From an uncultured Methanosarcinales archaeon (lineage in GTDB: Archaea > Nanobdellota > Nanobdellia > Woesearchaeales > GW2011-AR4), in NCBI GenBank assembly GCA_964607225.1, contig CAZSIU010000001.1, forward strand, positions 18 to 64,017: 64,000 nt of DNA. The letters run 5' to 3'. Below, piece by piece: positions 5,310 through 44,751 of the stretch. Numbering within the stretch: position 1 is the first letter of the stretch; every line of letters begins with the position of its first letter. The notes under the pieces were generated by a model that was not told where the DNA came from, did no database searches, and saw only the letters and a program-made list of their open reading frames with translations. The translations under genes were made by a program, and so were the position numbers.

Positions 5310-5327
5310 TTCCTACTGCGAAAGATT

Positions 5328-26142: not shown

Positions 26143-26799
26143 ATGATTAAAGCTGTTATTTTTGATGCTGGCGATGTGGTTTACTACAGGGATGAAGTAA
26201 CCTTAAAGCCTATGCTTGATTTTTTAAGGAAAAATGGCTTCAATATATCTGCAAAAGCATTCTTAAAAGCATATGACGCAAATTCACTGGCACTTTACAA
26301 AGGTAAAGTTTCAAAAGATGATAATCTAAAAAATGTATTAAAGTTTCTGAAAATAAGATTTAATGAGCAGTTTTTTGACAAATTTGCAAAAATTTTTAGA
26401 AAGAGTTTTTCTGATATTAAAATCAAAGAGAATGTCTATGAAATTTTTGAAAGAATTAAATCTAAGGGTATGAAAATAGCTGTTTTGACTGATACTTTTT
26501 CTTCAGAAGAAAAAAAATGGGAATGGTTTAAAAGCATCGATGTTGCGCAATTCATAGACATTATTGTATGTTCAAGTGTAACAGGATTTACAAAAGATAA
26601 AAAAGAAGCATATACAATAACGCTACAAAAATTAAATTTGAAGCCTAAAGAGGCTATTTTTGTTGGGCATAAAAAATATGAAATGACAGGCGCTAAGCTT
26701 GCTAACGTAAAATCTGTTTCATTGGAGAAAGACGCTGGCGCAGATTATTATGTCAGCTATATTTCTAATATTTTAAATTTGATTTATAAGCTTAATTAA
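26143..26799 (+). CDS. HAD-superfamily hydrolase/phosphatase
   Basis: IKAVIFDAGDVVY is HAD motif I (DxD), and VGHKKYEMTGA resembles motif IV. The start was trimmed to M37, where a proper ATG is present. Confidence 0.7.
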   Translation: MIKAVIFDAGDVVYYRDEVTLKPMLDFLRKNGFNISAKAFLKAYDANSLALYKGKVSKDDNLKNVLKFLKIRFNEQFFDKFAKIFRKSFSDIKIKENVYEIFERIKSKGMKIAVLTDTFSSEEKKWEWFKSIDVAQFIDIIVCSSVTGFTKDKKEAYTITLQKLNLKPKEAIFVGHKKYEMTGAKLANVKSVSLEKDAGADYYVSYISNILNLIYKLN

Positions 26800-27544
26800 A
26801 TTTTTTCTTTGCATTTTCCAGATCTTCCATTGTATCAATTTCAGCATAGTTTTTGCTGCTTGTATAAATTGGATATATTTTAAATCCTTTTTTAATAAAA
26901 TCCATCAATAAATACGAAGGAGAAGGGTATTTTTTGATCTCGCCACTTTTGATTAATTTAAAAATTCTGGCTTTGATTATTTGGATGCCTTTTCTGCTGA
27001 ATCTTGCCACTCCTATGTATTTGCCGCTTGTTTCATCATGCGATAAGCTCTTTGATATTTTTTTAACGAACCCTTTTGATATGTAAACTTTTGTATAGCC
27101 TTTTATTATTTTCATCCCTTTGTATTTTTCTATCAACTGCGGGTTTTCATCAAAATACTTCCCTTTTTCAATAGCAAGGCAAAAATCTTTTTTGCATCTT
27201 AATAGGCTCTTAACTATATCCGGCTTGAAAATTATGTCGCCATAGACTAAAATTGTTTCATCATTCAATTCATTTTTAGCTTTAAAAAGGCTTTCTAGCA
27301 GTCCTGTTGTCTCGTAATCTTTGTTTAGATAAAACTTGACATTTTTATTTCGTAATTTTTTCTTTACCCTATCAGCCTGATACCCTACCACGACACTTAT
27401 GTCATCAATTCTGTTCAACTTCAACGCATTGATTTGATGTTCTATTATGGGTTTGTTTTGAAGTTTTATCATGCATTTTGGCGTTCTCTGCCCTAGCCTT
27501 CCAAGCCTTTTCCCAGCTCCTGCTGCAAGTATTATTGCTTTCAT
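26792..27544 (-). CDS. LicC-like sugar/alcohol-phosphate nucleotidyltransferase (candidate phosphonate/phosphoalcohol cytidylyltransferase)
   Basis: MKAIILAAGAGKRLG...PKCMIKL matches the LicC/PntC-type NTP-transferase N-terminus. It is 250 aa. Confidence 0.7.
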   Translation of the reverse strand: MKAIILAAGAGKRLGRLGQRTPKCMIKLQNKPIIEHQINALKLNRIDDISVVVGYQADRVKKKLRNKNVKFYLNKDYETTGLLESLFKAKNELNDETILVYGDIIFKPDIVKSLLRCKKDFCLAIEKGKYFDENPQLIEKYKGMKIIKGYTKVYISKGFVKKISKSLSHDETSGKYIGVARFSRKGIQIIKARIFKLIKSGEIKKYPSPSYLLMDFIKKGFKIYPIYTSSKNYAEIDTMEDLENAKKKFN

Positions 27545-28179
27545 TTTATTTTATTTAGTATATCTTTCAATGCTTCTTCTGTTAGTTTTCTCGGGTTATT
27601 TTTTACTCTGTCTGGGTTAAACCCGTTTTTTATGATTATATTTATATCATTATCTGTTTTTATCCCTAAATCACTTAATTTTGTACTTAATCCTATATTT
27701 TCATTAAGGCTGTAATTCTTTTACTTGCATCTTCAATATTTTTTGCGTCGATAAAGCTAACAATTTCGTTTATATTTTTTAACATAATCAACACCTCTTT
27801 TGTCTAATAAATCTTGTTTTGTAACTTGTGAATTGTAAACAATCATAGGAGCAATTGTCAATGCAACTGCATGGCCATGAGGAACATTGAAATAGGATGT
27901 TATTGGATAAGAAATTGCATGACAAGCAGTTGTTTTTGTAATATTAATTGCATTTCCCAGTCCTGCATTTTGCATATAAACTAATCCAATTTTTCCAGTA
28001 GCAAGAGCAATTGCATTGCCTTCATTTGCAGCAATAATATGTTTTCGTCTTTTTGCATTATCCATTATATATGCGTTAAAGTCTTTAAGCAAAGAGTCAG
28101 GGACGCCAGTAAAAAAATCAATGCCATTTTTTACCAGATAATCGTAGATAGAACGTTGGCTATAAAGTGGATGGTGATT
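27545..28179 (-). pseudogene. Chimeric relic: the 5' part of ppd' (phosphonopyruvate decarboxylase, lacking its ATG) joined in-frame to the 3' part of adh', with a large internal deletion
   Basis: Positions 27958-28179 are about 75-80% identical to ppd 32161-32390. Positions 27776-27957 are 100% identical to adh 30363-30544. Positions 27545-27775 are a diverged copy of adh 30125-30362. The junction falls on an 8-bp 'gcatttcc' (GNA codons) shared by both genes. Confidence 0.8.
27776..27957. repeat. About 182-bp perfect direct repeat of adh 30363-30544 inside the relic
   Basis: The match is base for base, while the flanks have diverged. Confidence 0.85.
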
Positions 28180-28932
28180 TTATTCTCCGCCAGTAACATC
28201 AAGAATTGTGTTGGTAATAAACGTACTTCTTGGACCCGCAAGAAATAACACGGCATTTGATATTTCAAAAGGCTCGGCAAGTCTTTTTAACGGTATATAA
28301 TTAATACGAGCTGAAAGATCATTTCTACCTATCTTCTTATGAAAGGGAGTTTTTGTAGCACCTGGCCTAACAGCATTAACTAATACATTAAATGGAGCTC
28401 CTATCTTAGCAAAAGCTTTTGTTAAAGCTTCAAGAGCTGCCTTTGATGCACTATAATGCATAGTAGCTTCACCACCTCCATGTTGCCAGCCGCCGCTACT
28501 AATGTTTATGATCCGTCCATTACGCTTCTTAGACATAATAGAAAAAGCAGCACGGCTTAATAAAAATGGAGCTTTAAGATTCACTTGAAAGGTTCTATAC
28601 CATGCTTCTTCCGATAGGTTTTCAAAAGAAGTGGGCTTATAAACAAATCCGGCATTGTTGACTAATACATCGATACGCCCTTTACTCCACAATACAAATT
28701 TCTTCCACAGGGCATTAACTTCCTGAGAATTAACAAAATCTGACTTAAAAATTTTACATTGGTTATTCTTAGCGTATTTTAACAGCTTTCTTGCACCTTC
28801 CCTATTATCGCAATAATGAGCTCCTACAAAAGCTCCTTCTAAAAGAAAATCTTTGGCTATCTGAAATCCTATGCCACTACTTGAACCAGTAACAAGAATA
28901 TATTTATTTTCGAATTGCTTCTTGTCTTTCAT
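28180..28932 (-). CDS. Short-chain dehydrogenase/reductase (SDR)
   Basis: It has ILVTGSSSGIGFQIA (TGxxxGIG), NNAG and YSASKAALE (YxxxK). Confidence 0.85.
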   Translation of the reverse strand: MKDKKQFENKYILVTGSSSGIGFQIAKDFLLEGAFVGAHYCDNREGARKLLKYAKNNQCKIFKSDFVNSQEVNALWKKFVLWSKGRIDVLVNNAGFVYKPTSFENLSEEAWYRTFQVNLKAPFLLSRAAFSIMSKKRNGRIINISSGGWQHGGGEATMHYSASKAALEALTKAFAKIGAPFNVLVNAVRPGATKTPFHKKIGRNDLSARINYIPLKRLAEPFEISNAVLFLAGPRSTFITNTILDVTGGE

Positions 28933-29821
28933 AATAATCTTCCCATTTGCCTACAAATTCCCCACCCATCAACATTCCATTTGCATCGCAACTATTGCAT
29001 GGAATCTGATCTCGATCAGCCTTAGCTAATTTTACTCTAACCCGTTTCAATGTTTCACTATTCCAAATCTCTAAAATAGATTTTTCCTTAACATTGCCTA
29101 AAATCAATCTTTTATCCCAATCATGGGAGCATAGGACTACAGCACCGTCATAATCAATTAAAGTCTGATAAAATGGATAAAAACACTTCCTTTTAAGAGG
29201 GCTTTTTAGTTTTACTAAGCCAATATCTGGCATTATTTTTGCTCCTGCCCGATTAGAAAGTGTAATGCCAAAATGTTTCTCTGGTGTAAACCAACGTTGT
29301 CTTATACTGAACTGTTCATTACTTAAACCCGTTGCATCTCTCATCTCTTCAAAACGCTTTACTTTGTCTGGACCATCATAAACGCTAACGCCAATCTGAG
29401 TGAGACCCGCTGCAAAAAACTTATTAAGCTTCTCAACAGTTAGAAAATCACCATTAGTCACCATTTCAATCCGTACTTCTGGACAATATTGTTTGGATAA
29501 TCTTATTACTTCTTCTAAATGCCTATAAAGCAAAGGTTCGGAAAATGCAGAATAGAGTATATTTCCCTTGAATCCTACTTTGCTGAGGTCGGACATAACC
29601 TTTTCATACACTTCAATCTGAAGATGTTTATTGGTATTAGGCCAATTCGGATTACTGCGTGGGCAGAAACTACAAGTTCTATTGCATAAATCGCTAAGGT
29701 TGAATTCAATCCAAGAAAAAAGAGGGGGGTCATTTTTATTTACACGCTCTGGATCTTGGCCCTCCATGAATTTACTTTTGCGTGTTATATTTGGATCAAT
29801 AAAAATATATTTTCTTTCCAT
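28904..29821 (-). CDS. Radical SAM enzyme with C-terminal SPASM/twitch-like Cys cluster
   Basis: It has CNRTCSFC (CxxxCxxC), and the C-terminal region carries CFYPF...CSHDW...CNSCDANG. It is 305 aa. Confidence 0.75.
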   Translation of the reverse strand: MERKYIFIDPNITRKSKFMEGQDPERVNKNDPPLFSWIEFNLSDLCNRTCSFCPRSNPNWPNTNKHLQIEVYEKVMSDLSKVGFKGNILYSAFSEPLLYRHLEEVIRLSKQYCPEVRIEMVTNGDFLTVEKLNKFFAAGLTQIGVSVYDGPDKVKRFEEMRDATGLSNEQFSIRQRWFTPEKHFGITLSNRAGAKIMPDIGLVKLKSPLKRKCFYPFYQTLIDYDGAVVLCSHDWDKRLILGNVKEKSILEIWNSETLKRVRVKLAKADRDQIPCNSCDANGMLMGGEFVGKWEDYYERQEAIRK

Positions 29822-30124: not shown

Positions 30125-31276
30125 TCATCTTATTTCATACAAAATCCCTCTCAAAGTTTCTTCCGTCAATTTTCTCGGATTATTGTTAACCCTATCTGGA
30201 TTAAAACCATTCCTTATAATTATTTCTATATCTTCATCAGTTTCAATTCCCAATTCAGACAGCTTGGTACTTAAACCAATTTCTTTCATTAGGTTAGTTA
30301 TTTTTTCTGATGCTTCTTCAGCATTACTTGCACCAATTAATTCGACAATTTCTTTAATTGTGTTTTTAACATAATCAACACCTCTTTTGTCTAATAAATC
30401 TTGTTTTGTAACTTGTGAATTGTAAACAATCATAGGAGCAATTGTCAATGCAACTGCATGGCCATGAGGAACATTGAAATAGGATGTTATTGGATAAGAA
30501 ATTGCATGACAAGCAGTTGTTTTTGTAATATTAATTGCATTTCCAGCTAAATGAGCTGCTTTTGTCATTGTTCCTCTTGATATTTCTGAAGAATTATTCA
30601 CTGCTAATGGAATATTTTTAATAATAAGTTTGATTGCCTCTCTTGAATATTTTTTTGATTCGTCAGTTGAATTGATAGACCAGTATGATTCTATAGCTTG
30701 TGATAAAGCATCCATGCCGGTAAAAGCTGTTATATGTGCTGGCAGATTCATCGTAAATTGCGGGTCAACAATCGCATATTCAGGAATAATAAAATTATGG
30801 GTTAAAGTATATTTTACTTTGTCTTTGTATAAAACTGCATATCTTGTTGCTTCGCTGCCTGAACCAGAAGTTGTAGGTATAGCAACTGTAACTTTTCCTT
30901 TATTTTTTATTTTTGTTGGGTTGTTAATATATTCTATGAAAGACTTTTCTTCATTGCTAGCGAATAAATTAACAGCTTTTGCAATATCTAATGTAGTTCC
31001 ACCACCTACAGCTATAACAAAATCACAGTTATTCTTTTTAAATAATTCAAGCCCTTTCTTAATATCATCAAACTTTGGATTTACTTCAAATTCAGTAAAA
31101 TCGACAACATTGTAATTTCTTAGAATTTTGTTGAGTATCTTCTTTGCCCCACATTTTTCATAAGAATTCTTTCCAGTAACCAAAAAAATATTTTTAGGTT
31201 TATGTTTTAGTAATATGTTCCTCAAATTGTTTATAGAATTAAAACCAAAATATTCTTGCTGTCTCATTTTTATCAT
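30125..31276 (-). CDS. Group III iron-containing alcohol dehydrogenase (phosphonoacetaldehyde reductase-like, giving 2-hydroxyethylphosphonate)
   Basis: It has the GGGTTLDIAK motif of the Fe-ADH family and HGHAVALT metal-binding histidines. It is translationally coupled to ppd by an ATGA overlap. Confidence 0.8.
   Translation of the reverse strand: MIKMRQQEYFGFNSINNLRNILLKHKPKNIFLVTGKNSYEKCGAKKILNKILRNYNVVDFTEFEVNPKFDDIKKGLELFKKNNCDFVIAVGGGTTLDIAKAVNLFASNEEKSFIEYINNPTKIKNKGKVTVAIPTTSGSGSEATRYAVLYKDKVKYTLTHNFIIPEYAIVDPQFTMNLPAHITAFTGMDALSQAIESYWSINSTDESKKYSREAIKLIIKNIPLAVNNSSEISRGTMTKAAHLAGNAINITKTTACHAISYPITSYFNVPHGHAVALTIAPMIVYNSQVTKQDLLDKRGVDYVKNTIKEIVELIGASNAEEASEKITNLMKEIGLSTKLSELGIETDEDIEIIIRNGFNPDRVNNNPRKLTEETLRGILYEIR
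30363..30544. repeat. Partner copy of the 182-bp perfect repeat (inside the functional adh)
   Basis: See 27776-27957. Confidence 0.85.
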
Positions 31277-32388
31277 TGAAGAAATTTCATAAAATCTTCC
31301 TTATTCTCTATCGGCGTCTTAGTAGGCCTCCCCAAGTTTTTCCTAGCACCTTTATTTATTATTACTTCTAATAAAATAGGTCCTTCCATTTTACTCATTT
31401 TTCCTACTTTATCAATTATTTCTTCTTTTGTCTCTGCTGAAAAAGCATCTTTATAGCCACAAGCTTTTGCAATCTTAGGAATATTAATATTAAATGCGGC
31501 AGTTGGCTGCCCCCCAACAGAATCGTGAGCATAATTATTAAATACAATATGTTTGAAATTTTTTGGTTTAAGTTGTCCAATTATTGCTAACGCCCCCATA
31601 TGCATAATTAAGGCTCCATCTCCATCAAAACAATAAACGTCTCTATCAGATTTTTTAAGTGCGATTCCCAAGGCAATAGAGGAAGAATGTCCCATACTTC
31701 CCACTGTGAGAAAATCTTTTTCGTGCCCTTGCTTAGTTGCTTCTCTTAGCTCAAAAAGCTCTCTTGACGTTTTTCCTGTAGTTGAAACTACAATATCATC
31801 ATCATGTAGCAGTGGGGCGATGATTTTTATAGCCTCTTCCCTGTTTAATTCATAATTTGTTTTTATTTTATTTTTTAGTTTATATTCCTGGAAAGTTCCT
31901 TTACTGACAACTATTGCATATGGTGATTTTTTATTTTTCATATAATTAATCGCTTCCTTTATTGTATCTTCATAACTATCTTCTAATATTTTATAAGGTA
32001 TTTCCAATGTATCTAATAATTTTAGTGTAATCTTGCCCATCTTAACATGTTGAGGTTCATCTTTTTTTCCTGGCTCGCTTCTCCAACCTATAATAAGTAA
32101 CATGGGTATTGAATAAACATCTGGATCAGCAAGCGACGTAAGAGGATTTACAGCATTTCCTTCTCCGGAATTCTGCATATAAACCAATCCAAACCTCCTA
32201 GTAGCTAGATGATATCCTGCTGCAAGTGCAACTGCATTACCTTCATTAGCTGCAATAATATTTCTTTCATCTGGTGTATTATCAGCAACATAAGCACAAA
32301 AATCTTTAAGTAGAGAATCTGGGACTCCAGTAAAAAAATCAATTTTATTTTCTATTAGTTTATCATAAAAATTTTTACAAGATATCAT
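31273..32388 (-). CDS. ppd: Phosphonopyruvate decarboxylase (thiamine-diphosphate dependent)
   Basis: The N-terminus MISCKNFYDKLIENKIDFFTGVPDSLL and GDGALIMHMGAL (TPP-binding GDG) are present. It lies immediately downstream of the PEP mutase. Confidence 0.85.
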   Translation of the reverse strand: MISCKNFYDKLIENKIDFFTGVPDSLLKDFCAYVADNTPDERNIIAANEGNAVALAAGYHLATRRFGLVYMQNSGEGNAVNPLTSLADPDVYSIPMLLIIGWRSEPGKKDEPQHVKMGKITLKLLDTLEIPYKILEDSYEDTIKEAINYMKNKKSPYAIVVSKGTFQEYKLKNKIKTNYELNREEAIKIIAPLLHDDDIVVSTTGKTSRELFELREATKQGHEKDFLTVGSMGHSSSIALGIALKKSDRDVYCFDGDGALIMHMGALAIIGQLKPKNFKHIVFNNYAHDSVGGQPTAAFNINIPKIAKACGYKDAFSAETKEEIIDKVGKMSKMEGPILLEVIINKGARKNLGRPTKTPIENKEDFMKFLQ

Positions 32389-32414: not shown

Positions 32415-33713
32415 TCATTTACTTCCTGGAATTAATGTGAGCACTTCATTTATTGGCAAGCAATATTTATCTGCTTCATGACATCTTCCGTGTTTCAATA
32501 TAGTTTCTGCTGTTTTTATCATGGCAGGATATGCACTTCTCAGCAAATGATTTGCATAAATTACAATATTTACGCCAGCGTCAATTAATTCTTGCTCTGT
32601 AATAGTGTTATACGTTGTTGGTACTACAACCAAAGGAGCCTTATTCTTAATTTTCTTATATTCTTCACAAAAATCTAAAACTTCTTTTGTATCTTTTTCC
32701 TTGCTATGAATCATTATTCCATCCGCACCTGCATCAATGTAAGCTTTCGCTCTTTTTATTGCGTCATCTACCCCTTTTTTTAATATCAAGCTTTCTATCC
32801 TAGCTATAATCATAAAGTCTTCATTAACCTGAGCTTTTTTTCCTGCCGTTATTTTTCGACAAAAATTTTCTATTGAATCTTGTTGCTGCTCAACTTCTGT
32901 TCCATAAAGTGAATTTCTCTTTGGACCGATTTTATCTTCTATAATCACAGCAGATACTCCAATCCTCTCCAGAGTCTTGACTGTATATACAAAATGCTCA
33001 GCTAAACCACCTGTGTCTCCATCTACAATCATAGGTTTGGTAGTTACCTCAAAAATATTATCTATTGTTTGAAGTCTTGATGTTAAATCTACCAATTCAA
33101 TATCTGGCTTACCTTTGGAAGTCGAATCTGTCAAGCTGCTTTGCCACATTCCGTCAAATTCCCTTACATTATCGTCTTCAACCAATTTGATTTTTTCCAC
33201 TATTCTTCCGGTAAGTCCATTATGAACTTCCATAATCCTTACTAAGGGTTTAAGTTGAAGCAATTTTCTTAATCTCTTAAGTCTAACCTCTGGAGTAGTC
33301 CCTATGTCACTCATTTTATCAATCAATTCTGATGCGGAAACATCCCTTGTAGATTCAGGCTCTACTAGCTTACCGCCCCACTCTTTAAGATATTCTATTA
33401 CTCTTGCTCTAACTCCTTTTTGAATACCTGTTCGCCAGTCTGTGCCGTGTATAACATAGTCTGGCTTAAGTTTTTTAAGGTTGGGGACATAGTCTAAGGT
33501 TTCCTGGGGTATAACTTCACTTACACCCTTAATGTTTTCTATTATTTTTTTCCTCTGTTCGTATGTCAGGAGTGGAAGCCTTTTATAAGTGGCAATAGCC
33601 TCATCTGTCAATAATCCTACAGTTACATTTCCCAATTTTCTTGCTACTTCTATAATATTTATATGTCCATGATGAATTATATCAGTGCTCATTCCTACAT
33701 AAACTTTTTTCAT
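32415..33713 (-). CDS. pepM: Bifunctional N-terminal HxGH cytidylyltransferase / C-terminal phosphoenolpyruvate phosphomutase (Fom1-like architecture)
   Basis: The N-domain reads [13 protein letters not shown]. The C-domain carries [10 protein letters not shown] at residues 259-268, which matches the PepM-specific EDKxxxxxNS motif exactly, plus VDGDTGG. Confidence 0.88.
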
Positions 33714-33716
33714 TTT

Positions 33717-34256
33717 TTAATTCTCCTTTTTGTAAATCTTAATGATTTTATTGACGATGTTCTCAGTTGACAATTTTTCATAGAATGGTGGTTGTATAAC
33801 TTCCCCGTTGATTTTTTTAATATATTTAGCCCCGGGGACTTTTTTCCAGTTTGAACCACAAACTAGAATTAATTTTGCATTTTGAAATTGCTCATGAATT
33901 TTTTTTAAATTTGCTGTAGGATCCAAAGAGTTCTGAACCATAACCATATCTATACATCTAAGAGATGAAACTATGGACTTTCTATCTTTTAAACTAGCAA
34001 TTGGAGCTTCCCTATATGATTTAATTGCATCGTCAGTTAAAACACCACAAACATGAAAATCCCCAAGCTGATTTGCAATCAGCAACGATCTAAGTTGTCC
34101 GTAATGAAAAAGATCTCCTGTAGTAGAACTATAAACGACAGAGTTAATTTTATCTTTTTCAACAGCTACAATATCTCCTTCTTTAATTCCAGAGCCTTTA
34201 GGTATTGTAACACATAACTGACCATTAGATTTATTCGCCCACACTACTTTTTTCAT
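33717..34256 (-). CDS. Small-barrel domain plus TagD-like cytidylyltransferase domain protein
   Basis: TGDLFHYGQLRSLLIANQLGDFHVCGVLTDD aligns to the (H/F)xGH-type CTP-transferase core. Confidence 0.55.
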   Translation of the reverse strand: MKKVVWANKSNGQLCVTIPKGSGIKEGDIVAVEKDKINSVVYSSTTGDLFHYGQLRSLLIANQLGDFHVCGVLTDDAIKSYREAPIASLKDRKSIVSSLRCIDMVMVQNSLDPTANLKKIHEQFQNAKLILVCGSNWKKVPGAKYIKKINGEVIQPPFYEKLSTENIVNKIIKIYKKEN

Positions 34257-35105
34257 TTTCTACTAGTGTTACTAGTGATTGTATTTAAATGTTTCGGTTT
34301 TTATCTGGATTGAAAAGACTCTTTTGATTTCAAATATTGATATATAATATTGATTAAATTGCTACCATATAGAATTATTTTTGTTTGTAATTTTTTTTAT
34401 TTAATTGTGAATAAACTAAAATAATTTCTAGAATTTACACCCATCAAGATCTCTTTTGTCATTTTTACTCATTTTTCATTTCTTTGTTTTTCCCAGACCT
34501 TAACAAAAAAATTTCAACTTCTCAAATAATATCTGTTTTAATTTAACTAATTTGGTAGAAAATGAAAAAAGGCTTATAGAGGCTGGAGTTGCATGTCCAG
34601 TAAATGTTGTTAGGATAGTAGACAAAGAAAAAAATGAAGATATTGTAAGCGTAAAAGTTAGTTAGGATAAAGTCAAAGAAGTTATTGCTGAATATGATCA
34701 TGAAAAGGAATTTGTTATTGATTCAGAAGGTTATTTTTGAATAAGGTTAGACAGAAAAAACAAAAATATAGAGGTTGGTTTCTGCAATGAAAAAAAATAA
34801 GGTTGTTTTAAAAGTTGTTGGCAAAAAGCCAATTGATATTTATCAAACTATATTAAACAAAGAAAAGTTGTCGATAAGGAAAGACCATGCAGCTTATCTT
34901 GGGGAGAATTGCAAAACGCTTATTTTGCTTTGGAATATAATTTAGAATATGTTCAAGATGATGGTGCGGATTTAAATAAGAAATTTAATGAAAAATTTTT
35001 TAAATTCGTTATTTATAGTTAATTGTGATGTATTAAGCTTGTTTTTAATTTATTCTTAAAGAATTTATGAAAATTATTTATGATGAATAATAAAAATTGT
35101 TATAT

Positions 35106-36341
35106 TTAAAACCACCTTGTTGATTCTGTATGGACTCTTTCCAGGCCCTCCTGTCCTGAATACTTGTATATTAATGCAAGATCTTTTAATGGGTCTCCCT
35201 CTTCAGGTTTGATTTCCATTACGATTAATTTTCCTTCCTTATCACCAGTATTCCTAAATGAGTGAGGTACATTTGGTTGAATAAAAAAAGAAGTGCCTGG
35301 TTTCAATATTTGCTCATTACTTCTCCAGAGAAACATAACTGGAGTGTTTCCAACATTATAACCCCAACGGTCTGCATCCACGTTAATATCTAATGTTCTT
35401 TCTTCCTTCACTCTTTTAACAATATATTCAAATGCTTTCGTATGGGGTTGATTTGGGATTCCATTAATTAGTTCTCTCCACTTATAAGCATCATTCTCTT
35501 TTGAGGAGGCATCTTTATTTTTTCTCACTATTACACCCTCAAGTTCATCTGTAACTAGGTTTTCTTCAACTTTGGGTAATTTTTTCTTATAAGAGGATTG
35601 ATAATCATCAAGATCCATAGATTTTATTTTTGTCTGAAATTCATCTGTCGCAACTGCTCCTCCATAAGTAACCGCAAGAATCAATCCCTTTCCCTCTTCA
35701 CGTGTAGTAAAAGTATGAGGAACAAATGGCGTAATATAATTGATGTCTCCAGTATTCATTTTCCGCACGTGTTTATTGCCTTTTTTGTCAATCCAGTAAA
35801 AATTTACCGTCCCAATGAAATAAGTAATTTGATATTCAAAATGGCCTTTGTTAAATGCCCAATCAGGTACATTTGCGTCATTTCCATCATGGACGTAGCG
35901 CTCCACGATCCATTCGGGCCTGAAAGTAGATGTCTTTGACATTGCAGTGTCTCCATAATCATAATATGGAACTTTTTGGCCGTCACTCTGACCCCTCATA
36001 AATGTTCGTTGAGTTTCCTTCCTTTGTTCAGCAGTAAAAATAAGAACACCGTCATTTGTATCATCTTTAATTTTAAACTTATGCCTATGATTAGGATCAA
36101 ATAATTTACGTACATCCAAAGGAGAATGATTATCTACTGCATTAACAATTTCTGATGTTAGGGGTTTTTTCCCGTTCATAACTGCTTCAAGGTAAACTGG
36201 GTCTAAATTGTGTATATCAGCAAAACTAATTGAAGTTTGTTTTACTCCATTTAAAAGGCCTCTGAGTATTGGTCCAGCATTTTTAGCATAAGGGACGTCA
36301 GAAAAATTTTTATTTTCTCTTACTTCCATTTTTTGTTCCAT
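35106..36341 (-). CDS. mpnS: Bi-cupin 2-hydroxyethylphosphonate dioxygenase family; residue pattern favours methylphosphonate synthase (MPnS) over HEPD
   Basis: It has two cupin modules (…PFVPHTF… and …PNVPHSF…). The first-cupin triad is H167-x3-Q171...H209 (2-His-1-Gln). F sits 14 residues and I 36 residues downstream of the first His, matching the Phe162/Ile184 gate recalled for N. maritimus MPnS; HEPD has Tyr/Gly there. A GGAGGT Shine-Dalgarno sequence lies 8 nt upstream. Confidence 0.7.
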   Translation of the reverse strand: MEQKMEVRENKNFSDVPYAKNAGPILRGLLNGVKQTSISFADIHNLDPVYLEAVMNGKKPLTSEIVNAVDNHSPLDVRKLFDPNHRHKFKIKDDTNDGVLIFTAEQRKETQRTFMRGQSDGQKVPYYDYGDTAMSKTSTFRPEWIVERYVHDGNDANVPDWAFNKGHFEYQITYFIGTVNFYWIDKKGNKHVRKMNTGDINYITPFVPHTFTTREEGKGLILAVTYGGAVATDEFQTKIKSMDLDDYQSSYKKKLPKVEENLVTDELEGVIVRKNKDASSKENDAYKWRELINGIPNQPHTKAFEYIVKRVKEERTLDINVDADRWGYNVGNTPVMFLWRSNEQILKPGTSFFIQPNVPHSFRNTGDKEGKLIVMEIKPEEGDPLKDLALIYKYSGQEGLERVHTESTRWF

Positions 36342-36459: not shown

Positions 36460-37239
36460 TTAACTTATTTCTCCTCCAACTCTTAAGAAATCCTGCACAG
36501 TATCAAATTCTTTCCAATTTTTTTGTATTAAAACGCAATAAAGTTTTTCTCCTTTATCTATCATTTCTTGGAAAATATCAGTTATATAGGATTTTTGCCA
36601 TTCTTTTGCATTTTGATACGGATCGGTCATTTTTAATGTTGAATTTAGTCTGTCAAAATATTTTAAGAAAATATTTATTCCTTTAGGGGTAAACTTCCAT
36701 AAGCCGATAAATTCACCTTGTTTATTTTTTGGTACTTTATAAGTAAATATGTGCTTGCCAATCTTTAGCATTCTTTTTTTGTCATTCATTATTATATTTT
36801 CAGCTTCTGAAATTGGATGGTGAGTTCTGCCTTCATAATAATCTTGCCAATCTATATCAACAATAGCAGCTATATCATTTTTATCTTCTAATAATTTCTT
36901 TACCACAATATCATTGTACCATATATCTGAATAACTTATAACGACATCTTCTTTTGATTTTATGGCTTCTTCTAATTTAGCTCTGGCGCACATCAAAGAA
37001 TGAAGAATGTTATTATTCCAGAAATCTGCATTTTCAAAATATGTAATGTTTGTAAAATTTATCTTTTCTTTTTTATAGCCTCTTACTATTGAAATATCTT
37101 CAATTTCATTTTTTCTAAAAAGATCTATAGTATTCTCTAGTATCGGCTTGCCCTCTATCTTCAGCATACATTTTGGCAAGTTATCCGTTATTGGCCTTAG
37201 ACGTGAAGATGGTCCAGCAGCGATGATAATTCCTTTCAT
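36460..37239 (-). CDS. LicC-like nucleotidyltransferase (second copy; candidate phosphonate cytidylyltransferase)
   Basis: MKGIIIAAGPSSRLRPITDNLPKCMLKI is paralogous to 26792-27544. Confidence 0.7.
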   Translation of the reverse strand: MKGIIIAAGPSSRLRPITDNLPKCMLKIEGKPILENTIDLFRKNEIEDISIVRGYKKEKINFTNITYFENADFWNNNILHSLMCARAKLEEAIKSKEDVVISYSDIWYNDIVVKKLLEDKNDIAAIVDIDWQDYYEGRTHHPISEAENIIMNDKKRMLKIGKHIFTYKVPKNKQGEFIGLWKFTPKGINIFLKYFDRLNSTLKMTDPYQNAKEWQKSYITDIFQEMIDKGEKLYCVLIQKNWKEFDTVQDFLRVGGEIS

Positions 37240-37345: not shown

Positions 37346-38209
37346 TTAGAAACTCATTTTTATTTCGTTTTTTCCTCTTAGAAGAAATTCTTTCAAAAAA
37401 GTTATTATCTCATCATCCAATCTTCTTAAGAATTCCGCTTCCCTATCCACTCTCATATATTTTTTTTCACCTAAATAAGTAAATAATTCCCTTATAGAAA
37501 AATCGACAGTCCCATAATTGATAAATGGTCTTCCCATTTCTCCAATCTTTATTACCATTGCTTTGATCATGGCCACTGGATTTAATTTTTTATCAAGCAA
37601 TTTTTCTTTTAGCAGTCTTCTCTGTACAATCATTGGGAAGGTGTTTAAATCAAATTTTATATTCCATACTTTGCTTTTTAATATTTTTTCTCTAAAATTA
37701 AAATTGAATTCCTTGTTTTGTTGTCTTTCCTTGAAAGCAAAAAAATCTATATTATCCCAAAACTCCCAATTTCCTGAGCAAATTGATGAGTGAGGCAAAA
37801 AGAATTGTACTGGTCTTATAAATGTATCAAAATAAATATGGCTTATAAAACTTAAAGTTGCATGTACTTTATTTTGTTCTATCTTCTTTAGTCCTTCGTA
37901 TTTAATCAATTCACAAGCATTATTAAAAAAGTTTATAAATTTTTCTTGATTTTTTTTGATATGCATGTAATAAGATGTATTTTTTGAAAATTTTAGTTTT
38001 TGGTTTGTGAAGACTGCCATTGCAGAGTCTAAAATTTTTGGAAGATTATGTAGATTATGTGTGTATATTTCGAGCTCTTTTCCCAGCAGCGGAATAAAAG
38101 AGTAAATAGCAGAATTTATATCGCAATCACATGCTTTAAGTAATTTTATACTTAATATTCCTCTTGTTAATTCATCCATTTTTAACCTTGTTTTTGCATT
38201 TCTTCCCAT
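37346..38209 (-). CDS. Hypothetical protein (287 aa), no recognisable family; overlaps the downstream AP-family gene by 28 nt
   Basis: It is a long ORF inside a co-directional operon. The start is possibly at M11 (MDELTRG). Confidence 0.45.
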   Translation of the reverse strand: MGRNAKTRLKMDELTRGILSIKLLKACDCDINSAIYSFIPLLGKELEIYTHNLHNLPKILDSAMAVFTNQKLKFSKNTSYYMHIKKNQEKFINFFNNACELIKYEGLKKIEQNKVHATLSFISHIYFDTFIRPVQFFLPHSSICSGNWEFWDNIDFFAFKERQQNKEFNFNFREKILKSKVWNIKFDLNTFPMIVQRRLLKEKLLDKKLNPVAMIKAMVIKIGEMGRPFINYGTVDFSIRELFTYLGEKKYMRVDREAEFLRRLDDEIITFLKEFLLRGKNEIKMSF

Positions 38210-39306
38210 AAATATTTTTCTATTTTAGGTTCCTGTCCTATTAAATTATTTTTTTCTTCTTTGTCATCAATGAGATTATACAATTCTTTCTTTTTATTTG
38301 TCTCATTATATATTAATTTCCACTTGTTTGTTCTCACAGCTTTGATGTTATGTTTCTCTGGAGAAGGCGTTGGTCCATCTAAACCCCCTGTTTCAGAGTA
38401 AGCGACTCTATTTTCTATTATTCCCTTAATAAATGGTAAAAATGATTTTCCACCTATCTTTTTATAATTATCCTCTTCCTTTATTTTTAGTATGTCCAAT
38501 AAAGTTGGTAAAATATCAATACTTCTAATTAAATTATTTATTTGCAGATTTTTAGGAAAGTCCTTTCCAATTAAATATAAAAAGCTTCTTATTGTGTACT
38601 CATAGAGATAAACACCATATGCCCTTTCTCCAACTTTGTCTCCAGTACTGGTCCCATGATCAGTACAAACAAATATAATAGAATCATCATGCAATCCTAA
38701 TTGCTTTATTTTTTCCATAATATCTTTAAGATAATTTGCGCTTTCCCCAACCCATCCAAGGTAATTCTTGAAATTTTTATCTTTATTATTGAAATACTCC
38801 TCATCAAAATCAGAGTATTTTTTTACTACGGTGTTGATCAAATTAACATGTATACTTCCATATCGAAGAAAGAGGAAAAAAGGATTTTTATGTCTTATTT
38901 GGTGCAATATTTCAGTGTGCCTTTTTGAGAAGTTTATATCCTTAAACTCGTCATAAATTCTATATTTATCAAATCCTTGTTGAGGTATGACCCCTTCAAG
39001 ATGTAAATCTGCTTCGGTGTAATAACCATTTTCTTTTACATATTGGGTTAATGTAAAACAATTTTTTTTATCAAAACTATGAATTCTGTAATAACCATTT
39101 ACGCCGTTGAAATTACCATTCATTCCAGAAAATAAGGAGTGTAAAGAAGCTATAGTATATGGTGCGTAGGTAATTAATTTAGGGAAAAAAACAGATTCTT
39201 TTTTGAGTTCTTGGTAATATCGAATTTTATCAATAGAGTCGTACCTAACCCCATCTATAACTATAATTATGATATTTGGTTTTTTTTTCTTAAATAGATT
39301 AATCAT
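38182..39306 (-). CDS. Alkaline-phosphatase-superfamily enzyme (NPP/PhnA/sulfatase-like), cytoplasmic
   Basis: IIVIDGVRYDS (a DGxRxD metal site) and YTIASLHSLFSG resemble the T-x-P-x-H-x-S-x-x-TG nucleophile loop. There is no TM segment and no signal peptide. Confidence 0.65.
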   Translation of the reverse strand: MINLFKKKKPNIIIIVIDGVRYDSIDKIRYYQELKKESVFFPKLITYAPYTIASLHSLFSGMNGNFNGVNGYYRIHSFDKKNCFTLTQYVKENGYYTEADLHLEGVIPQQGFDKYRIYDEFKDINFSKRHTEILHQIRHKNPFFLFLRYGSIHVNLINTVVKKYSDFDEEYFNNKDKNFKNYLGWVGESANYLKDIMEKIKQLGLHDDSIIFVCTDHGTSTGDKVGERAYGVYLYEYTIRSFLYLIGKDFPKNLQINNLIRSIDILPTLLDILKIKEEDNYKKIGGKSFLPFIKGIIENRVAYSETGGLDGPTPSPEKHNIKAVRTNKWKLIYNETNKKKELYNLIDDKEEKNNLIGQEPKIEKYLWEEMQKQG

Positions 39307-39355: not shown

Positions 39356-40717
39356 TTAATTTATATATCCTGCTTTCCTCAGAGTTTCTCTTGATTTCTC
39401 AGTAAGATCTGACAAGTTAGTTTGTCCCTCATTGCTTTGTGGTTTTAAAAATTCTAAGATTTTATCTTTCATATAAGAAGCCCTTTCTTTTTCCTTATCA
39501 ATAAGATTATTCTGTTCATTTGGATCATTCGTTAGATTATAGAGCTCAAAAATGTCTTTTTCTGGATGGGGTATATATATAATTTTCCAATCTCCTTCTA
39601 TCATAGCTCTCCATTTTCCCTTGACGCCTGGAAAAAAAATCCTTTTATTTTCCTTAAAGATCTCTTCCATACTTTCAGCAAAAATAAATTTTACTTTATT
39701 TTTTGAATTATTATTAATCAAAGGTAATAAGCTTACTCCGTCGATTTTATCCAATACCGGGATATTAAGCATTTCCAATATGGTTGGCATTATATCCAGT
39801 AGTCTAACTCTTTCTTTAATAACTTTACATCCATCAAAGAATTTCGGATAATTAAATATTAATGGAACTCTTAGGCTTGGTTCGTAAAGTGAAGATCCAT
39901 GTAAAAAATAAAAATTATGTTCTCCAAAATTTTCTCCATGATCAGATGTTAAAATAATTAATGTGTTATCATCTAGACTTTTGGACTTTACAAAATCAAT
40001 TAATCTTCCAAAATGTAAATCAGTATATTTTATACTACCATCGTAATGTGCGATAGCATGACTAATTTCTTCTTTATGAAATTTAATATGACCATACATA
40101 AGTTCCCCCCTAGAAAATTTACCGTGTTTTAAAGTATTAAAATCATGATTTCCTTTATAATTTGGATCAAACGTATGATCATAGGGCTTTGGGATTTCAT
40201 ACGGCCAGTGCATATCATCGAAATGCAGGCATAAGAAAAACTTCTTTTTTGAGTTTTTTTTAATCCATTTAATTGCTACATCTATATATTGCTCGGTAGA
40301 ACTCATAAAATTTCTTGGATTTAGCACTTTTTTTAAGCCTCTCTTAATTTTATTTTTGATTTTCCATGATAGCAAATTAAATTTTTTAAATCCCTTTCTT
40401 AAAGGAGGTTCGTATAATCCAGCGTTGCCCATAAAAGCTGTTTCATATCCATGATTAATAAGTATTTCAGGTAAATGTGTAAAGGAAAAATTTAGATTAT
40501 CATTTTTAACCAACCTTATACCATGAGTGTGTGGATATAATCCAGTAAAAAGAGACATTAGAGAAGGATTTGTTCTTGGTAAAGAAGTGTAAGCATTTAG
40601 AAAACTTGTACCTTGCCTGTAAAAATTATCAATATTTGGACTGGTATTTCTATTATAACCATTTACACTTAAATGATCTGGTCGTAAAGAATCTATTATA
40701 ATTAAAATAATATTCAT
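39356..40717 (-). CDS. Alkaline-phosphatase-superfamily enzyme (sulfatase/NPP-like), cytoplasmic
   Basis: It has IIIDSLRPDHL. SLMSLFTGLYPHTHGI matches the NPP-type ...TGLYPESHGI loop. The canonical sulfatase C/S-x-P-x-R motif is absent. Confidence 0.65.
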   Translation of the reverse strand: MNIILIIIDSLRPDHLSVNGYNRNTSPNIDNFYRQGTSFLNAYTSLPRTNPSLMSLFTGLYPHTHGIRLVKNDNLNFSFTHLPEILINHGYETAFMGNAGLYEPPLRKGFKKFNLLSWKIKNKIKRGLKKVLNPRNFMSSTEQYIDVAIKWIKKNSKKKFFLCLHFDDMHWPYEIPKPYDHTFDPNYKGNHDFNTLKHGKFSRGELMYGHIKFHKEEISHAIAHYDGSIKYTDLHFGRLIDFVKSKSLDDNTLIILTSDHGENFGEHNFYFLHGSSLYEPSLRVPLIFNYPKFFDGCKVIKERVRLLDIMPTILEMLNIPVLDKIDGVSLLPLINNNSKNKVKFIFAESMEEIFKENKRIFFPGVKGKWRAMIEGDWKIIYIPHPEKDIFELYNLTNDPNEQNNLIDKEKERASYMKDKILEFLKPQSNEGQTNLSDLTEKSRETLRKAGYIN

Positions 40718-40862: not shown

Positions 40863-41735
40863 TTGATGAAAAATAAAAAAATCACTTATAAAGAAGTAAG
40901 AGCTATACAGAAAGAGGATATACGCGCAAATAGAATAATATATAGTCATAACAGACATTTTTCTTCTCCATTTACTTATATTTTTATCAAGTTAGGAATT
41001 TCGCCAAACACTATAACAACATTTAATTTTTTTATTCCCATATTAGGATTTATATTTTTATCTTTAGGCACATATCTATCTATTATTGTTGGAATACTTT
41101 TTTTTAATTTATTTTTTATATTTGACCAATCAGATGGAGAAGCTGCAAGACTGCAAAATAGAGGAAGTATTGAGGGGATTTATTTGGATATAATAAACCA
41201 TTACATTTATGGTTGTTGTATAGGATTAGGATTAGGATACGGTCTATCCAGATTATACCATAATGAAATTTATATTGTTCTGGGATTTATCTTAACGCTC
41301 ATTTTTGTTTTGGAATACGCTATTCCGCATGTCCTAAATTCCATAGTTGTGAAGGGGTTGATAGATAATAAGACTTATGATAAAATTGAATCCGTTGATA
41401 AAGTTAGAAAGCTATTGGATAGGTATATTTACGGTGGGCGTTCTTGGGCAAACAGCAACATAATTTCAAAATTAGTAGGAATATACCCATTCCAAGGTCT
41501 GATTTTTTCAGTTCACTTTATACTTCCAATAATATTGATGTTAACTTTGATGGAAATTTTCTTAAGTGCTTCATTTGAATTCCCAATTCTTATTTATGGT
41601 TTGAATATTGGATTAATATCTTCATATTTATTTGTGCTCGCCACATCAAAAATAATCTGGATTATTGGCTATATTTCAAGAATAGTAAGAAATAGGCTTA
41701 TAACTAAATTTTTGATGGCTAGCAAAGATTCTTAA
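40863..41735 (+). CDS. CDP-alcohol phosphotransferase family membrane protein
   Basis: DQSDGEAARLQNRGSIEGIYLDIINH matches D-G-x2-A-R-x8-G-x3-D-x3-(D/H). It has multiple TM helices. Confidence 0.75.
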   Translation: MMKNKKITYKEVRAIQKEDIRANRIIYSHNRHFSSPFTYIFIKLGISPNTITTFNFFIPILGFIFLSLGTYLSIIVGILFFNLFFIFDQSDGEAARLQNRGSIEGIYLDIINHYIYGCCIGLGLGYGLSRLYHNEIYIVLGFILTLIFVLEYAIPHVLNSIVVKGLIDNKTYDKIESVDKVRKLLDRYIYGGRSWANSNIISKLVGIYPFQGLIFSVHFILPIILMLTLMEIFLSASFEFPILIYGLNIGLISSYLFVLATSKIIWIIGYISRIVRNRLITKFLMASKDS

Positions 41736-42933: not shown

Positions 42934-44751
42934 CTAGGCAACACTAAAGATAACAGCTCCTTGGTTCTGGAAAACAAGCCTGAAAAGCCCAGATTGCGCA
43001 AGTTCTTGTACCTTGCTATTTGAATTGTCTGCTCCAAATTTCCTTACTGCCTGCCCATCAATGATCAAATATTCGTATCCTTTATTTTTTAGCCAATTGT
43101 AGTTTTCTTCGGCAGTCTGGTTAAAACCATTATTCATATAACCTTCAACATCTTTGCACCAATGGCATGTATACAAATCCATGCCAATGACAGGACCGTT
43201 ATTTGAAAACGTAAAAAGCCTGGAATTGCTGGGCAAATTCTGCTTAATCCATATATAAGCCCCTATTTCCTCTCCTGATGTCCAGAAAGCGCCTGGCGGC
43301 CATATAGCAGTATTTACGGCTATTTTCTGCTGGGTAGAGGTAAAATATATTCCTGTCAATAACAGCATAAGAACTGCGTACATGCCAATTTTTCCTGCAG
43401 ACTTTTTTGATATAGCAAGCAGATTAAATGCTCCTTCAGCAGCTAATACACAAATAGGTATTGCTAACAGCATCCATGCCCTAAAAGGGGAAAGCTTTAC
43501 AGGCATATTTGCAGCATTAACTGCATAAAAAGTGAACAAAAACCATACCGAAGTTATTGTGAGCCAGTGATTTTCCTTCTTTAGCAAGCCCTTAAACCTT
43601 ACAAAAATAAATATTATTCCTAATATTGCAAGAATCGATAAAACAATGCCGATACCTATGGGGTTGTTTATCATGTTTTGCTTTTGCGCTATTAGAAAAT
43701 CAGACAACGTATAAGCCCTATCTGCAGTTCCCGGAACGCTTATTATTGATTCTCCTTTACCTATAGCAAGTCCCAATCCCTTTAAAGTACCAGAAAAACC
43801 ATATGTAAAAATCATGGGCAGCCACCATACGGCAAAAGACAAGCCTATGCCCAGAAGGCCTGTAGCTGCATGCCATACTAGAAATTTTCTTTCCAAGATG
43901 ATTTTAGTTATAATATATAAAATAAAAAACAAGCCAAAATAAGTTGAATGTGTGGGGGATGAGGTCAAAACGGTTACCATAAGCAATCCAGAAACAATCC
44001 ACCACTTCTTATCATGCCTTATTCTTTCTATAGCATAGAAAACAACAAAATACAATGGGACGGTCAAAGACAAAGCCCAGATGAAATGTGACATAAATGC
44101 AGGTATGGACAATAAGGCAAAAGCCGCGAACAAAGCCTTGTTCCTGTTGCCTGTAAATTCCTTGACAAAAAAGTAAAAAAATATAGTTGACAAAGAGATT
44201 ATCAGGGCATTAAAAAATTTCAAAGTCCAATGCACGGAATCATTTGTTTGGTGCAGCAAGCCCATCAGCAGATCATAAGCAGGGGGGTAAGGATCGATAT
44301 AATGGAATCTATTGCCGACACCTGCAAAAACAGTTTTCTCAACAGCAACAAATTTTGAACTTATAGCATGTCCCCATGAATCGTCATCCTCTAAATAAGG
44401 ATAAGCAAAAGCTCCTGAAGAGTAAATGTAAAGATTAACAAAAAAAAGAGCAAGCATTGCCAAAATGCTTAAATCTGTTTTCGTCAATTTAAAGGCAAAT
44501 TTGGTTATAGGTTTATTCCTGATTAAATAATATAGTGGATATGCTAATGATAATGCCAGAATAATTTTCCAGTCTATTGGGACTCTGAATAAATTTAAAA
44601 TTAATCCCAAGAAAGGCAGCAAAGAAAGCCCAAAGCCTATCCTCATGAGGTTTCTCTCAAGAAAGTTATCGGAATTCTTTACAAATGAGGATACAGCAAA
44701 GCCTAATCCGTAGGCATATACAAAAAACAAAAGTATGGTTACATAACTCAT
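42934..44751 (-). CDS. Large polytopic membrane protein (GT-C-like), paralogue of 58028-60067
   Basis: It has more than 12 TM helices plus a roughly 150-aa C-terminal soluble domain. It shares a KNSDN(F/L) N-terminal motif and C-terminal similarity with 58028-60067. Confidence 0.5.
   Translation of the reverse strand: MSYVTILLFFVYAYGLGFAVSSFVKNSDNFLERNLMRIGFGLSLLPFLGLILNLFRVPIDWKIILALSLAYPLYYLIRNKPITKFAFKLTKTDLSILAMLALFFVNLYIYSSGAFAYPYLEDDDSWGHAISSKFVAVEKTVFAGVGNRFHYIDPYPPAYDLLMGLLHQTNDSVHWTLKFFNALIISLSTIFFYFFVKEFTGNRNKALFAAFALLSIPAFMSHFIWALSLTVPLYFVVFYAIERIRHDKKWWIVSGLLMVTVLTSSPTHSTYFGLFFILYIITKIILERKFLVWHAATGLLGIGLSFAVWWLPMIFTYGFSGTLKGLGLAIGKGESIISVPGTADRAYTLSDFLIAQKQNMINNPIGIGIVLSILAILGIIFIFVRFKGLLKKENHWLTITSVWFLFTFYAVNAANMPVKLSPFRAWMLLAIPICVLAAEGAFNLLAISKKSAGKIGMYAVLMLLLTGIYFTSTQQKIAVNTAIWPPGAFWTSGEEIGAYIWIKQNLPSNSRLFTFSNNGPVIGMDLYTCHWCKDVEGYMNNGFNQTAEENYNWLKNKGYEYLIIDGQAVRKFGADNSNSKVQELAQSGLFRLVFQNQGAVIFSVA

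Follow-up and report, generated by a model that had tools for sequence, protein, structure and literature searches.

Much of the dissolved organic phosphorus in the sea is phosphonate, and the methane formed aerobically in the ocean is accepted to derive from methylphosphonate (MPn). Among described phosphonate pathways, one of the closest to the locus examined here is that of fosfomycin in Streptomyces wedmorensis, where Fom1 joins an N-terminal cytidylyltransferase (CyTase) to a C-terminal phosphoenolpyruvate (PEP) mutase (Ppm), and where a phosphonopyruvate decarboxylase (Ppd) and an alcohol dehydrogenase that form 2-hydroxyethylphosphonate (HEP) are encoded alongside. The B12-dependent radical S-adenosylmethionine (rSAM) methyltransferase Fom3 of this pathway needs the CMP handle (PMC9088020). 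A PF01467 domain is present in 23.6% of the Ppm enzymes in RefSeq, and Fom1 serves as the model case (Rice et al., 2019, PMC6697681), and phosphonate decoration of cell-surface glycans has been reviewed (PMC6697681; PMC8942020). Here we analyze a 64-kb stretch of contig CAZSIU010000001.1 (assembly GCA_964607225.1, an uncultured Methanosarcinales archaeon), hereafter the window, in which a four-gene operon encodes a stand-alone cytidylyltransferase of 179 residues (CyT179), a 432-residue CyTase-Ppm fusion and HEP-type downstream enzymes. We give a probability of roughly 60% to the reading that this operon makes a nucleotide-activated phosphonate head group for a cell-surface glycan, through a CMP-HEP route with MPn as a side branch. 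Coordinates refer to the minus strand unless stated otherwise, and the labels Woesearchaeota, Nanoarchaeota and DPANN used for relatives are names attached to the homologues, by which the window too is probably of DPANN type.

The fusion occupies 32415-33713 and was described in the initial annotation as Fom1-like, a description that a domain search bears out. PF01467 (CTP_transf_like) is found at residues 11-102 (E 1.1e-15, 58 bits against a cut-off of 21) and PF13714 (PEP_mutase) at residues 148-406 (E 3.2e-59), so that a Fom1-type CyTase domain of residues 1-135 (33309-33713) precedes a PEP mutase domain of residues 148-432 (32415-33272) in the same order as in Fom1. The protein passes the PEP mutase equivalog TIGR02320 (420 bits against a cut-off of 320), its mutase domain matches the PEP mutases 5unc and 1m1b in the PDB, and the Ppm signature EDKxxxxxNS is intact from residue 259. 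In the N-terminal domain, the ten-residue string quoted by the initial annotation is present and contains HxGH in the form H-H-G-H; at residues 13-16, it aligns with H-P-G-H of Fom1 and H-W-G-H of TagD. The RTxGISTT-type region reads S-T-R-D-V-S-A-S in the fusion, Y-T-P-G-I-S-S-T in Fom1 and R-T-E-G-I-S-T-T in TagD, with only the threonine and a serine column common to all three. Over the first 133 residues of the fusion, the alignment with the sequence of the Fom1 CyTase crystal structure 5x3d is gapless, with 78 of 130 residues (60%) identical and an E value of 1.5e-50.

Judging from the number of homologues, from existing database labels and from the RefSeq survey (Rice et al., 2019), this fusion architecture is already known and widespread, and the window protein is a new member of it within a phosphonoglycan cluster of an ordinary kind. 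Homologues run into the thousands. The best 120 are 72-81% identical, about 432 residues long and drawn from marine and groundwater metagenomes, with the named members among them labeled Woesearchaeota or Nanoarchaeota archaeon. Some homologues in JGI are already called 'PEP phosphomutase / 2-hydroxyethylphosphonate cytidylyltransferase'. A scan limited to a single genome per species gave 80 loci whose fusions are 61-78% identical to that of the window and which span Ignavibacteria, Aminicenantes, Bacteroidota, Planctomycetota, Proteobacteria, Clostridia and DPANN-labeled archaea. Fom1-type fusions and the nucleotide activation of phosphonates being established, this core finding adds little; what sets the locus apart is a divergent MpnS-type module and a paralogous CyT179 in tandem, which bears a conserved extension and the motif H-Y-G-Q. 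An intein or other insertion in the fusion genes of relatives was also considered and rejected, as the matches of about 1720 bp that raised it are the upstream CyT179 gene caught by the N-terminal domain of the query.

The four genes run head to tail from 34256 to 30125 and form one tightly coupled operon: cyt179 (33717-34256), cyT-ppm, ppd (31273-32388; 371 aa, TPP_enzyme_N and TPP_enzyme_C) and pdh (30125-31276; 383 aa, Fe-ADH and ADH_Fe_C). The gap between cyt179 and the fusion gene is 3 nt, with GGAG immediately before the fusion start codon; 26 nt separate the fusion gene from ppd, and the pdh start lies over the ppd stop in a 4-nt overlap. The initial annotation had drawn CMP-activated HEP from the fusion architecture. 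The architecture alone does not imply HEP, and what points to HEP, and hence to CMP-HEP, in the window is the iron-dependent alcohol dehydrogenase (Fe-ADH) encoded by pdh. CMP-HEP nevertheless remains a reasonable prediction for the N-terminal domain, because that domain is 60% identical to the Fom1 CyTase and because Ppd and Fe-ADH adjoin it. Among the 66 of the 80 genome loci that extend at least 3.5 kb downstream of the fusion, Ppd lies beside it in 63 and Fe-ADH in 55, and the two together adjoin it in 53.

The remaining annotatable genes of the window all belong to surface-glycan synthesis by their Pfam families: GT1, GT2 and GT4 glycosyltransferases, four PMT_2 transferases, two Wzx-type flippases, many sugar epimerases and dehydratases, a UDP-glucose dehydrogenase, a DegT aminotransferase and methyltransferases. 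Near the operon are a pair of genes of the sulfatase/alkaline-phosphatase superfamily (38182-39306 and 39356-40717; PF00884), a membrane protein of the CDP-alcohol phosphatidyltransferase family (40863-41735, plus strand; PF01066, E 9.2e-8) and two LicC-like nucleotidyltransferases, one LicC/PntC-like (36460-37239; PF00483/PF12804) and one of the NTP_transf_3 type (26792-27544). The neighborhood thus holds four nucleotidyltransferases and one gene of the CDP-alcohol-transferase family, which fits nucleotide activation of a phosphonate. The latter protein, with a 40% identical homologue at the same place in the related locus L004, is a candidate user of a CMP- or CDP-activated head group, and the sulfatase-family pair is a candidate for head-group transferases or hydrolases; genes of this family immediately precede CyT179 in relatives, and in the thaumarchaeal-type locus L088 they border MpnS. 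In DPANN-labeled relatives, the conserved core consists of sulfatase, CyT179, CyTase-Ppm, Ppd, Fe-ADH, LicC-like nucleotidyltransferase, flippase and PMT_2 glycosyltransferase, and the LicC-like gene (26792-27544 in the window) directly follows the Fe-ADH gene in L004-L008, L091 and L092. A 605-residue ORF nearby (42934-44751) belongs to no Pfam family and recurs near the cluster in L006 (79% identical), L004 (67%) and L019 (40%).

Surveyed clusters for surface phosphonates share with the window PF01467-Ppm fusions, multiple nucleotidyltransferases, CDP-alcohol-transferase-type genes and a role in surface decoration (PMC6697681; PMC8942020). In contrast to the window, which combines a DPANN-labeled setting with HEP and MPn, those surveys concern bacteria and mostly 2-aminoethylphosphonate (AEP) activated by LicC-type PntC; the window also differs from the surveyed clusters in its tandem arrangement of a PF01467 protein and a PF01467-Ppm fusion. 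No DUF402/FomD or HppE-type protein occurs among the scanned window ORFs of at least 100 aa, and the fosfomycin-type gene set is accordingly incomplete here. The glycan setting, together with the absence of these two protein types, therefore points to phosphonate decoration of a glycan or glycoprotein and not to a fosfomycin-like metabolite.

In the route that we propose, the C-terminal domain of the fusion would convert PEP to phosphonopyruvate, as its family-defining motif indicates. The TPP enzyme would then yield phosphonoacetaldehyde, and the Fe-ADH, a probable phosphonoacetaldehyde reductase, would reduce this to HEP; family membership and conserved synteny both suggest these two steps. 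The Fom1-type domain would join HEP and CTP to give CMP-5'-HEP, the reaction demonstrated for the enzyme to which it is 60% identical. Finally, CMP-HEP would act as the donor that attaches HEP to a glycan or glycoprotein, in the manner of CDP-glycerol or CMP-AEP, and not as a transient handle for antibiotic tailoring. Placed in an archaeal glycan island, unlike the fom1 cluster, the operon more likely makes CMP-HEP as an end-use donor than as such a handle.

Several points weigh against this proposal. A class-V aminotransferase of the AEP type occurs in 9 of the 66 loci, all 9 among the 11 that lack Fe-ADH, and from the counts of the two enzymes the fusion appears mostly but not always tied to HEP. 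The Tara Oceans contig L093 (9457-14223) encodes a 76% identical fusion and a CyT179 homologue without Ppd or Fe-ADH; its gene order is CyT179 homologue, fusion, then two aminotransferases and a nucleotidyltransferase, which suggests a phosphonoalanine-type product for this pair. Given such AEP-type and aminotransferase-only clusters, whose fusions are 62-76% identical, the N-terminal domain may be promiscuous or otherwise specific, and its predicted preference for HEP derives from homology and neighboring genes. More broadly, every substrate assignment made here is inferred from domain identities, motifs and synteny. The naming of sulfatase-family or CDP-alcohol-transferase-family proteins as the transferase that would use CMP-HEP is a guess, all four nucleotidyltransferases are candidates for the activation of HEP or of MPn, and the pairing of CyT179 with the fusion as a heterodimer, taken up below, is drawn only from gene adjacency and rare fusions.

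The initial annotation raised the possibility of a fosfomycin-like logic, in which a B12 rSAM methyltransferase modifies carbon or phosphorus of CMP-HEP or CMP-MPn, the conjugate being formed for that purpose. The three B12-type genes on which it relied are indeed in the window, at 13957-15510 (B12-binding and Radical_SAM domains), 15851-17164 (plus strand) and 62929-63975, and the dependence of Fom3 on a CMP handle lends the idea some force. These class-B enzymes match superfamily-level models only, however, none reaching an NCBIfam equivalog cut-off, and they lie among glycan genes 16-30 kb from ppm. Their identity to the rSAM enzymes embedded in the clusters of relatives does not exceed 31%, and we reject the window enzymes as orthologues of either group of those enzymes. 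No rSAM remnant is found in the spacer upstream of the operon, and L004, L006, L008 and L092 possess the full core without any rSAM gene. Unlike Fom1, then, the window fusion has no adjacent Fom3-type enzyme, FomD or HppE; the analogy to Fom3 finds no support in the window, and we judge the fosfomycin-like logic quite improbable for this operon. For the third rSAM gene, tblastn similarity extends to about 63999, and the window probably ends within its N-terminal, B12-binding portion.

The case differs in those relatives whose cores do hold B12-type rSAM genes. These enzymes form two orthologous groups, r1 (L019, L174, L175 and L091) and r2 (L019, L175 and L093); in L091 and L093 one B12-type rSAM gene is the immediate upstream neighbor, in L056 one is divergently oriented, and the r1 member of L091 scores best against the model of the Sden_1168 P-methyltransferase family (8e-95, below the cut-off). 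For rSAM-bearing relatives a Fom1/Fom3-type scheme is a fair hypothesis. In the marine relatives L019 (6533-11311) and L175 (3430-8187), two such genes, different from each other, separate the CyT179 homologue from the fusion, with a comparable arrangement in L174 (8001-9954). The first of the two in L175, a member of r1, shares 20 nt with the CyT gene. The CyT copies of L174 and L175 also read H-Y-G-Q.

Upstream of the operon lies an inserted module. In L004, L006, L008 and L092 a sulfatase gene stands directly before CyT179; in the window the two are separated by a 287-residue protein (37346-38209), the LicC/PntC-like nucleotidyltransferase at 36460-37239, a 411-residue bicupin oxygenase of the HEPD/MpnS superfamily (35106-36341) and an 849-bp non-coding spacer (34257-35105). 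The 287-residue protein matches no Pfam or NCBIfam family and has no homologue in the 80 genome loci. In the PDB, the bicupin matches MpnS of Nitrosopumilus maritimus (6b9s, 2.4e-59) ahead of HEPD (6b9r, 5.8e-35). It keeps the His/Gln/His positions of the 2-His-1-Gln iron site and has the MpnS-type Phe and Ile (F162 and I184 of N. maritimus) in place of the Tyr and Gly of the HEPD chain, as checked on both PDB chains; the aligned strings are GHFEYQ, VNF and YITPFVPH in the window protein and VNY and VWGLPF in the HEPD chain. Phe and Ile as against Tyr and Gly at these positions reportedly separate MpnS from HEPD, a distinction ascribed to work of Born and colleagues in 2017. K28, R102, Y110 and N145, which we take to be phosphonate-binding positions in MpnS, are also conserved in the bicupin alignment, and this favors free HEP as the likely substrate.

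Canonical MpnS proteins of about 455-460 aa share only about 32% identity with the bicupin, which falls outside their clade. It belongs instead to a divergent clade of about 70 members, 380-425 aa long and called hypothetical in Woesearchaeota or Patescibacteria, and has no NCBIfam match. The Nitrosopumilus-type MPn cluster, represented by L088, resembles the window in its PEP to HEP to MPn logic, sulfatase-family genes and LicC-like nucleotidyltransferase, and its MpnS shares the iron ligands and the Phe and Ile positions with the window bicupin. The two differ in that the Ppm of L088 is unfused (298 aa), its MpnS of 457 aa is about 32% identical to the bicupin, and L088 encodes no PF01467 proteins. 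The combination of a CyTase-Ppm fusion with MpnS is not unique to the window, since the canonical MpnS locus L090 has both.

Such a module invites the alternative that the Ppm-fused CyTase or CyT179 activates MPn, with HEP a mere intermediate and MPn the sole surface decoration. The MpnS-type gene lies about 850 bp upstream of the operon on the same strand, the canonical MpnS locus L090 of another organism also has a CyTase-Ppm fusion, and MPn esters are products of organisms of the N. maritimus type (Metcalf et al., 2012, as cited in PMC9381506). Against this, an MpnS-type gene is missing from relatives whose fusions are 72-81% and whose CyT179 proteins are 62-81% identical to those of the window; none is found in any of the 80 genome loci, nor in L091 or L092. 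Second, the MpnS-type gene travels with a LicC-like nucleotidyltransferase of its own and is sometimes fused to it, as in P0254 (623 aa; L086, 390-2261, and L087, 1221-3092), in which the nucleotidyltransferase is joined to an MpnS-type bicupin. In the Woesearchaeota contig L084, the nucleotidyltransferase and MpnS-type genes form a pair inside a CyTase-Ppm/Ppd/Fe-ADH cluster that has a CyT179 homologue. Finally, the thaumarchaeal-type MPn locus combines an unfused Ppm with a LicC-like nucleotidyltransferase. Activation of MPn by either CyTase is thus unlikely in our view. Because of the P0254 fusion and the L084 gene pair, MPn, if made, most likely has its own activating enzyme in the LicC-like protein, for which 36460-37239 is the candidate. 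Under the CMP-HEP proposal, the inserted module would most likely divert free HEP to MPn, to be activated separately by this nucleotidyltransferase. The P0254 gene is followed by genes for a TagF-like glycerophosphotransferase and a GT2 enzyme, with no ppm within the contig. In the groundwater contig L084, a phosphonate ABC transporter of the PhnD/PhnC/PhnE type (4600-7111) is placed within the biosynthetic cluster itself, with the CyT179 homologue on one side and the fusion on the other.

The first gene of the operon, cyt179, encodes the second CTP-transferase that was announced from the string TGDLFHYGQ, and PF01467 is found in it at residues 48-136 (E 1.2e-6, 29.2 bits against a cut-off of 21). 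The string holds a degenerate HxGH, H-Y-G-Q, that had escaped comment. It is not a sequencing error, because cyt179 is identical base for base in three independent assemblies. In an alignment of 62 family members, position 54 is His (H-Y-G-H) in 57 and Gln (H-Y-G-Q) in 5, the window protein included. The core had been called TagD-like; it proves nearer to the Fom1 CyTase by PDB sequence and by Foldseek comparison. The best PDB sequence match is 5x3d (7.7e-11), ethanolamine-phosphate cytidylyltransferase ECT (3elb) is second (8.9e-9), and TagD lies behind. An AlphaFold2 model (mean pLDDT 79; core above 85, residues 1-32 below 50) predicts a Rossmann-like CyTase fold, with 5x3d (TM 0.80 on the target), 2b7l and 1coz as the top Foldseek matches. 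A stretch G-[LV]-LTD-x-AI-x-SY-[KR] is common to CyT179 and the Fom1-type domains, and TagD lacks it.

The first 38 residues of CyT179 form an extension that other CyTases do not have, in which W6, N8, N11, Q13, L14, C15, T17 and P19 are invariant; its mean column identity in the family is 87%, as compared with 73% for the catalytic core, where D48, H51, G53, R92, W137 and S163 are invariant. Searches of the extension against the PDB by phmmer and by family profile returned nothing better than E 0.19 and no AbrB or MazE chains, and the model confidence in this part is too low for a fold search. A swapped-hairpin N-terminus of the AbrB/MazE/SpoVT kind, as in an NadR-like regulator, was rejected, PF04014 reaching E 0.17 in only one of three members.

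The second histidine of HxGH is catalytically important, as mutagenesis of TagD and CCT reportedly found. The turnover of window CyT179 itself may therefore be reduced, its second catalytic His being Gln, and one may ask whether the protein is a dead or regulatory pseudo-enzyme that binds CTP or a CMP-phosphonate, modulates the fusion, or serves as a dimer partner only. An extension more conserved than the core suggests a role in protein interaction and is in keeping with this view, as is the optional character of the CyT179-like domain in the kinase modules described below, where it is found in 23 of 80. Yet H-Y-G-H is kept in 57 of the 62 family members with H51, G53, D48, R92, W137 and S163 invariant, Gln can still hydrogen-bond phosphate, and Q54 recurs in L174 and L175, which otherwise look functional. 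We therefore regard a pseudo-enzyme as possible but doubtful. Q54 was also tried as a marker of MpnS clusters and rejected, since two other relatives with Q54 have two B12-type rSAM genes and no MpnS. Nor is CyT179 explained as specific to MPn, as it occurs in relatives without MpnS.

We read CyT179 as a putative accessory CyTase module that partners head-group activation pathways. Of the 80 genome loci, 10 hold a full-length homologue, whose gene almost always immediately precedes that of the fusion; these loci are mostly labeled Woesearchaeota or Nanoarchaeota, with three others (two Methanosarcinales and one Saccharibacteria). Further homologues are present in the marine loci L091-L093, L174 and L175 and in groundwater L084. 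Two proteins unite the domains in one frame: P0002 (611 aa) joins CyT179, a CyTase domain and Ppm, and P0361 (315 aa), colinear with the window from 34256 to 33324, joins CyT179 to a Fom1-type CyTase domain. To our knowledge, no Fom1 cluster has a second, paralogous CyTase gene such as the one that precedes the window fusion. Pcyt2/ECT (3elb) carries two tandem PF01467 domains in one chain, as P0002 and P0361 do with their CyT179 and Fom1-type domains; in the window, by contrast, the domains are on separate genes and a PEP mutase is attached, and an ECT-like pseudo-dimer is what we infer from the likeness. CyT179 and the fusion most likely form a heterodimeric or tandem CyTase pair; alternatively, CyT179 cytidylylates a second small phospho- or phosphono-substrate.

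An exhaustive HMMER search found further relatives of CyT179 as N-terminal domains of proteins of 930-1208 aa that also have PPDK_N and a swivelling-histidine PEP-utilizer domain. Phosphotransferases of this PPDK_N/PEP-utilizer type (RPH- or Cj1418-like, about 780-1200 aa) belong to a widespread module of three genes, in the order kinase, LicC-like nucleotidyltransferase and sulfatase-family protein, which was surveyed in 80 metagenome loci (L094-L173; P0363-P0378). The kinase is followed by a LicC-like nucleotidyltransferase in 67 of these 80 and by a sulfatase-family gene in 40; a CyT179-like N-terminal domain is present in 23 and Ppm in 1. A PPDK-like kinase partner was looked for in the window, and none was found. 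In Campylobacter jejuni, the PPDK-like glutamine kinase Cj1418 and the cytidylyltransferase Cj1416 reportedly act together in forming the capsular O-methyl phosphoramidate (MeOPN), a kinase-plus-cytidylyltransferase logic for head groups that the kinase-fused relatives of CyT179 recall. The window differs in lacking such a kinase, and the resemblance is one of domain family only (for the C. jejuni enzymes, see PMC11800397; bioRxiv 10.1101/2024.11.05.622173).

A wider and less likely reading, which we advance tentatively, is that CyT179 defines an undescribed clade of Fom1-related cytidylyltransferases, marked by the invariant 38-residue N-terminal module, that act as portable partners, paired with a Ppm-fused CyTase in DPANN archaea (at times in one polypeptide) and fused to PPDK-like kinases in other microbes, that CMP-phosphonates are handed to the P-methyltransferase-like B12-type rSAM enzymes to which it is translationally coupled in several relatives, and that DPANN archaea and some bacteria of the candidate phyla radiation (CPR) make MPn and new methylated phosphonates or phosphinates. 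If this were so, these organisms would be unrecognized producers of methylphosphonate, and Fom1/Fom3-type logic would be in use for cell-surface chemistry and not for antibiotics. Hundreds of DPANN-labeled contigs from marine and groundwater samples carry the conserved HEP cluster, and some, the window among them, add the MpnS-type enzyme, a clade probably missed by surveys that apply cut-offs of 60% identity to canonical MpnS (PMC9381506). The uncharacterized CyT179 proteins, with their fusions to Ppm and to PPDK-like kinases, offer a concrete and cheap biochemical target for the activation and attachment of head groups on archaeal surfaces.

Two neighboring regions remain to be described. 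The 849-bp spacer upstream of the operon presumably holds its promoter. It contains no ORF longer than 56 aa and no Rfam match, and a decayed gene or an RNA was rejected on these grounds and for want of any tblastn remnant of the rSAM or sulfatase genes of relatives; scans for sigma-70 promoters and terminators gave background levels and are not applicable to archaea. A tRNA scan of the window found none. Downstream of pdh, an SDR gene (28180-28932) and a radical SAM/SPASM gene (28904-29821) precede a chimeric ppd/pdh pseudogene with approximate limits of 27545-28170. As seen by tblastn, the pseudogene joins about 77-110 N-terminal residues of Ppd, 65% identical to the Ppd of a relative, to the last 139 residues of Fe-ADH, with the junction at a G-x-GNA-[IV]-N microhomology common to both. 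The first 60 residues of its Fe-ADH part are 100% identical to the functional copy at 30125-31276, and three in-frame stops follow. In relatives, pdh is followed directly by the LicC-like nucleotidyltransferase gene, and the SDR and rSAM/SPASM pair (28180-29821) is not at that position. Because the pseudogene sits at this junction, the pair looks like a recent cassette insertion accompanied by a partial duplication.

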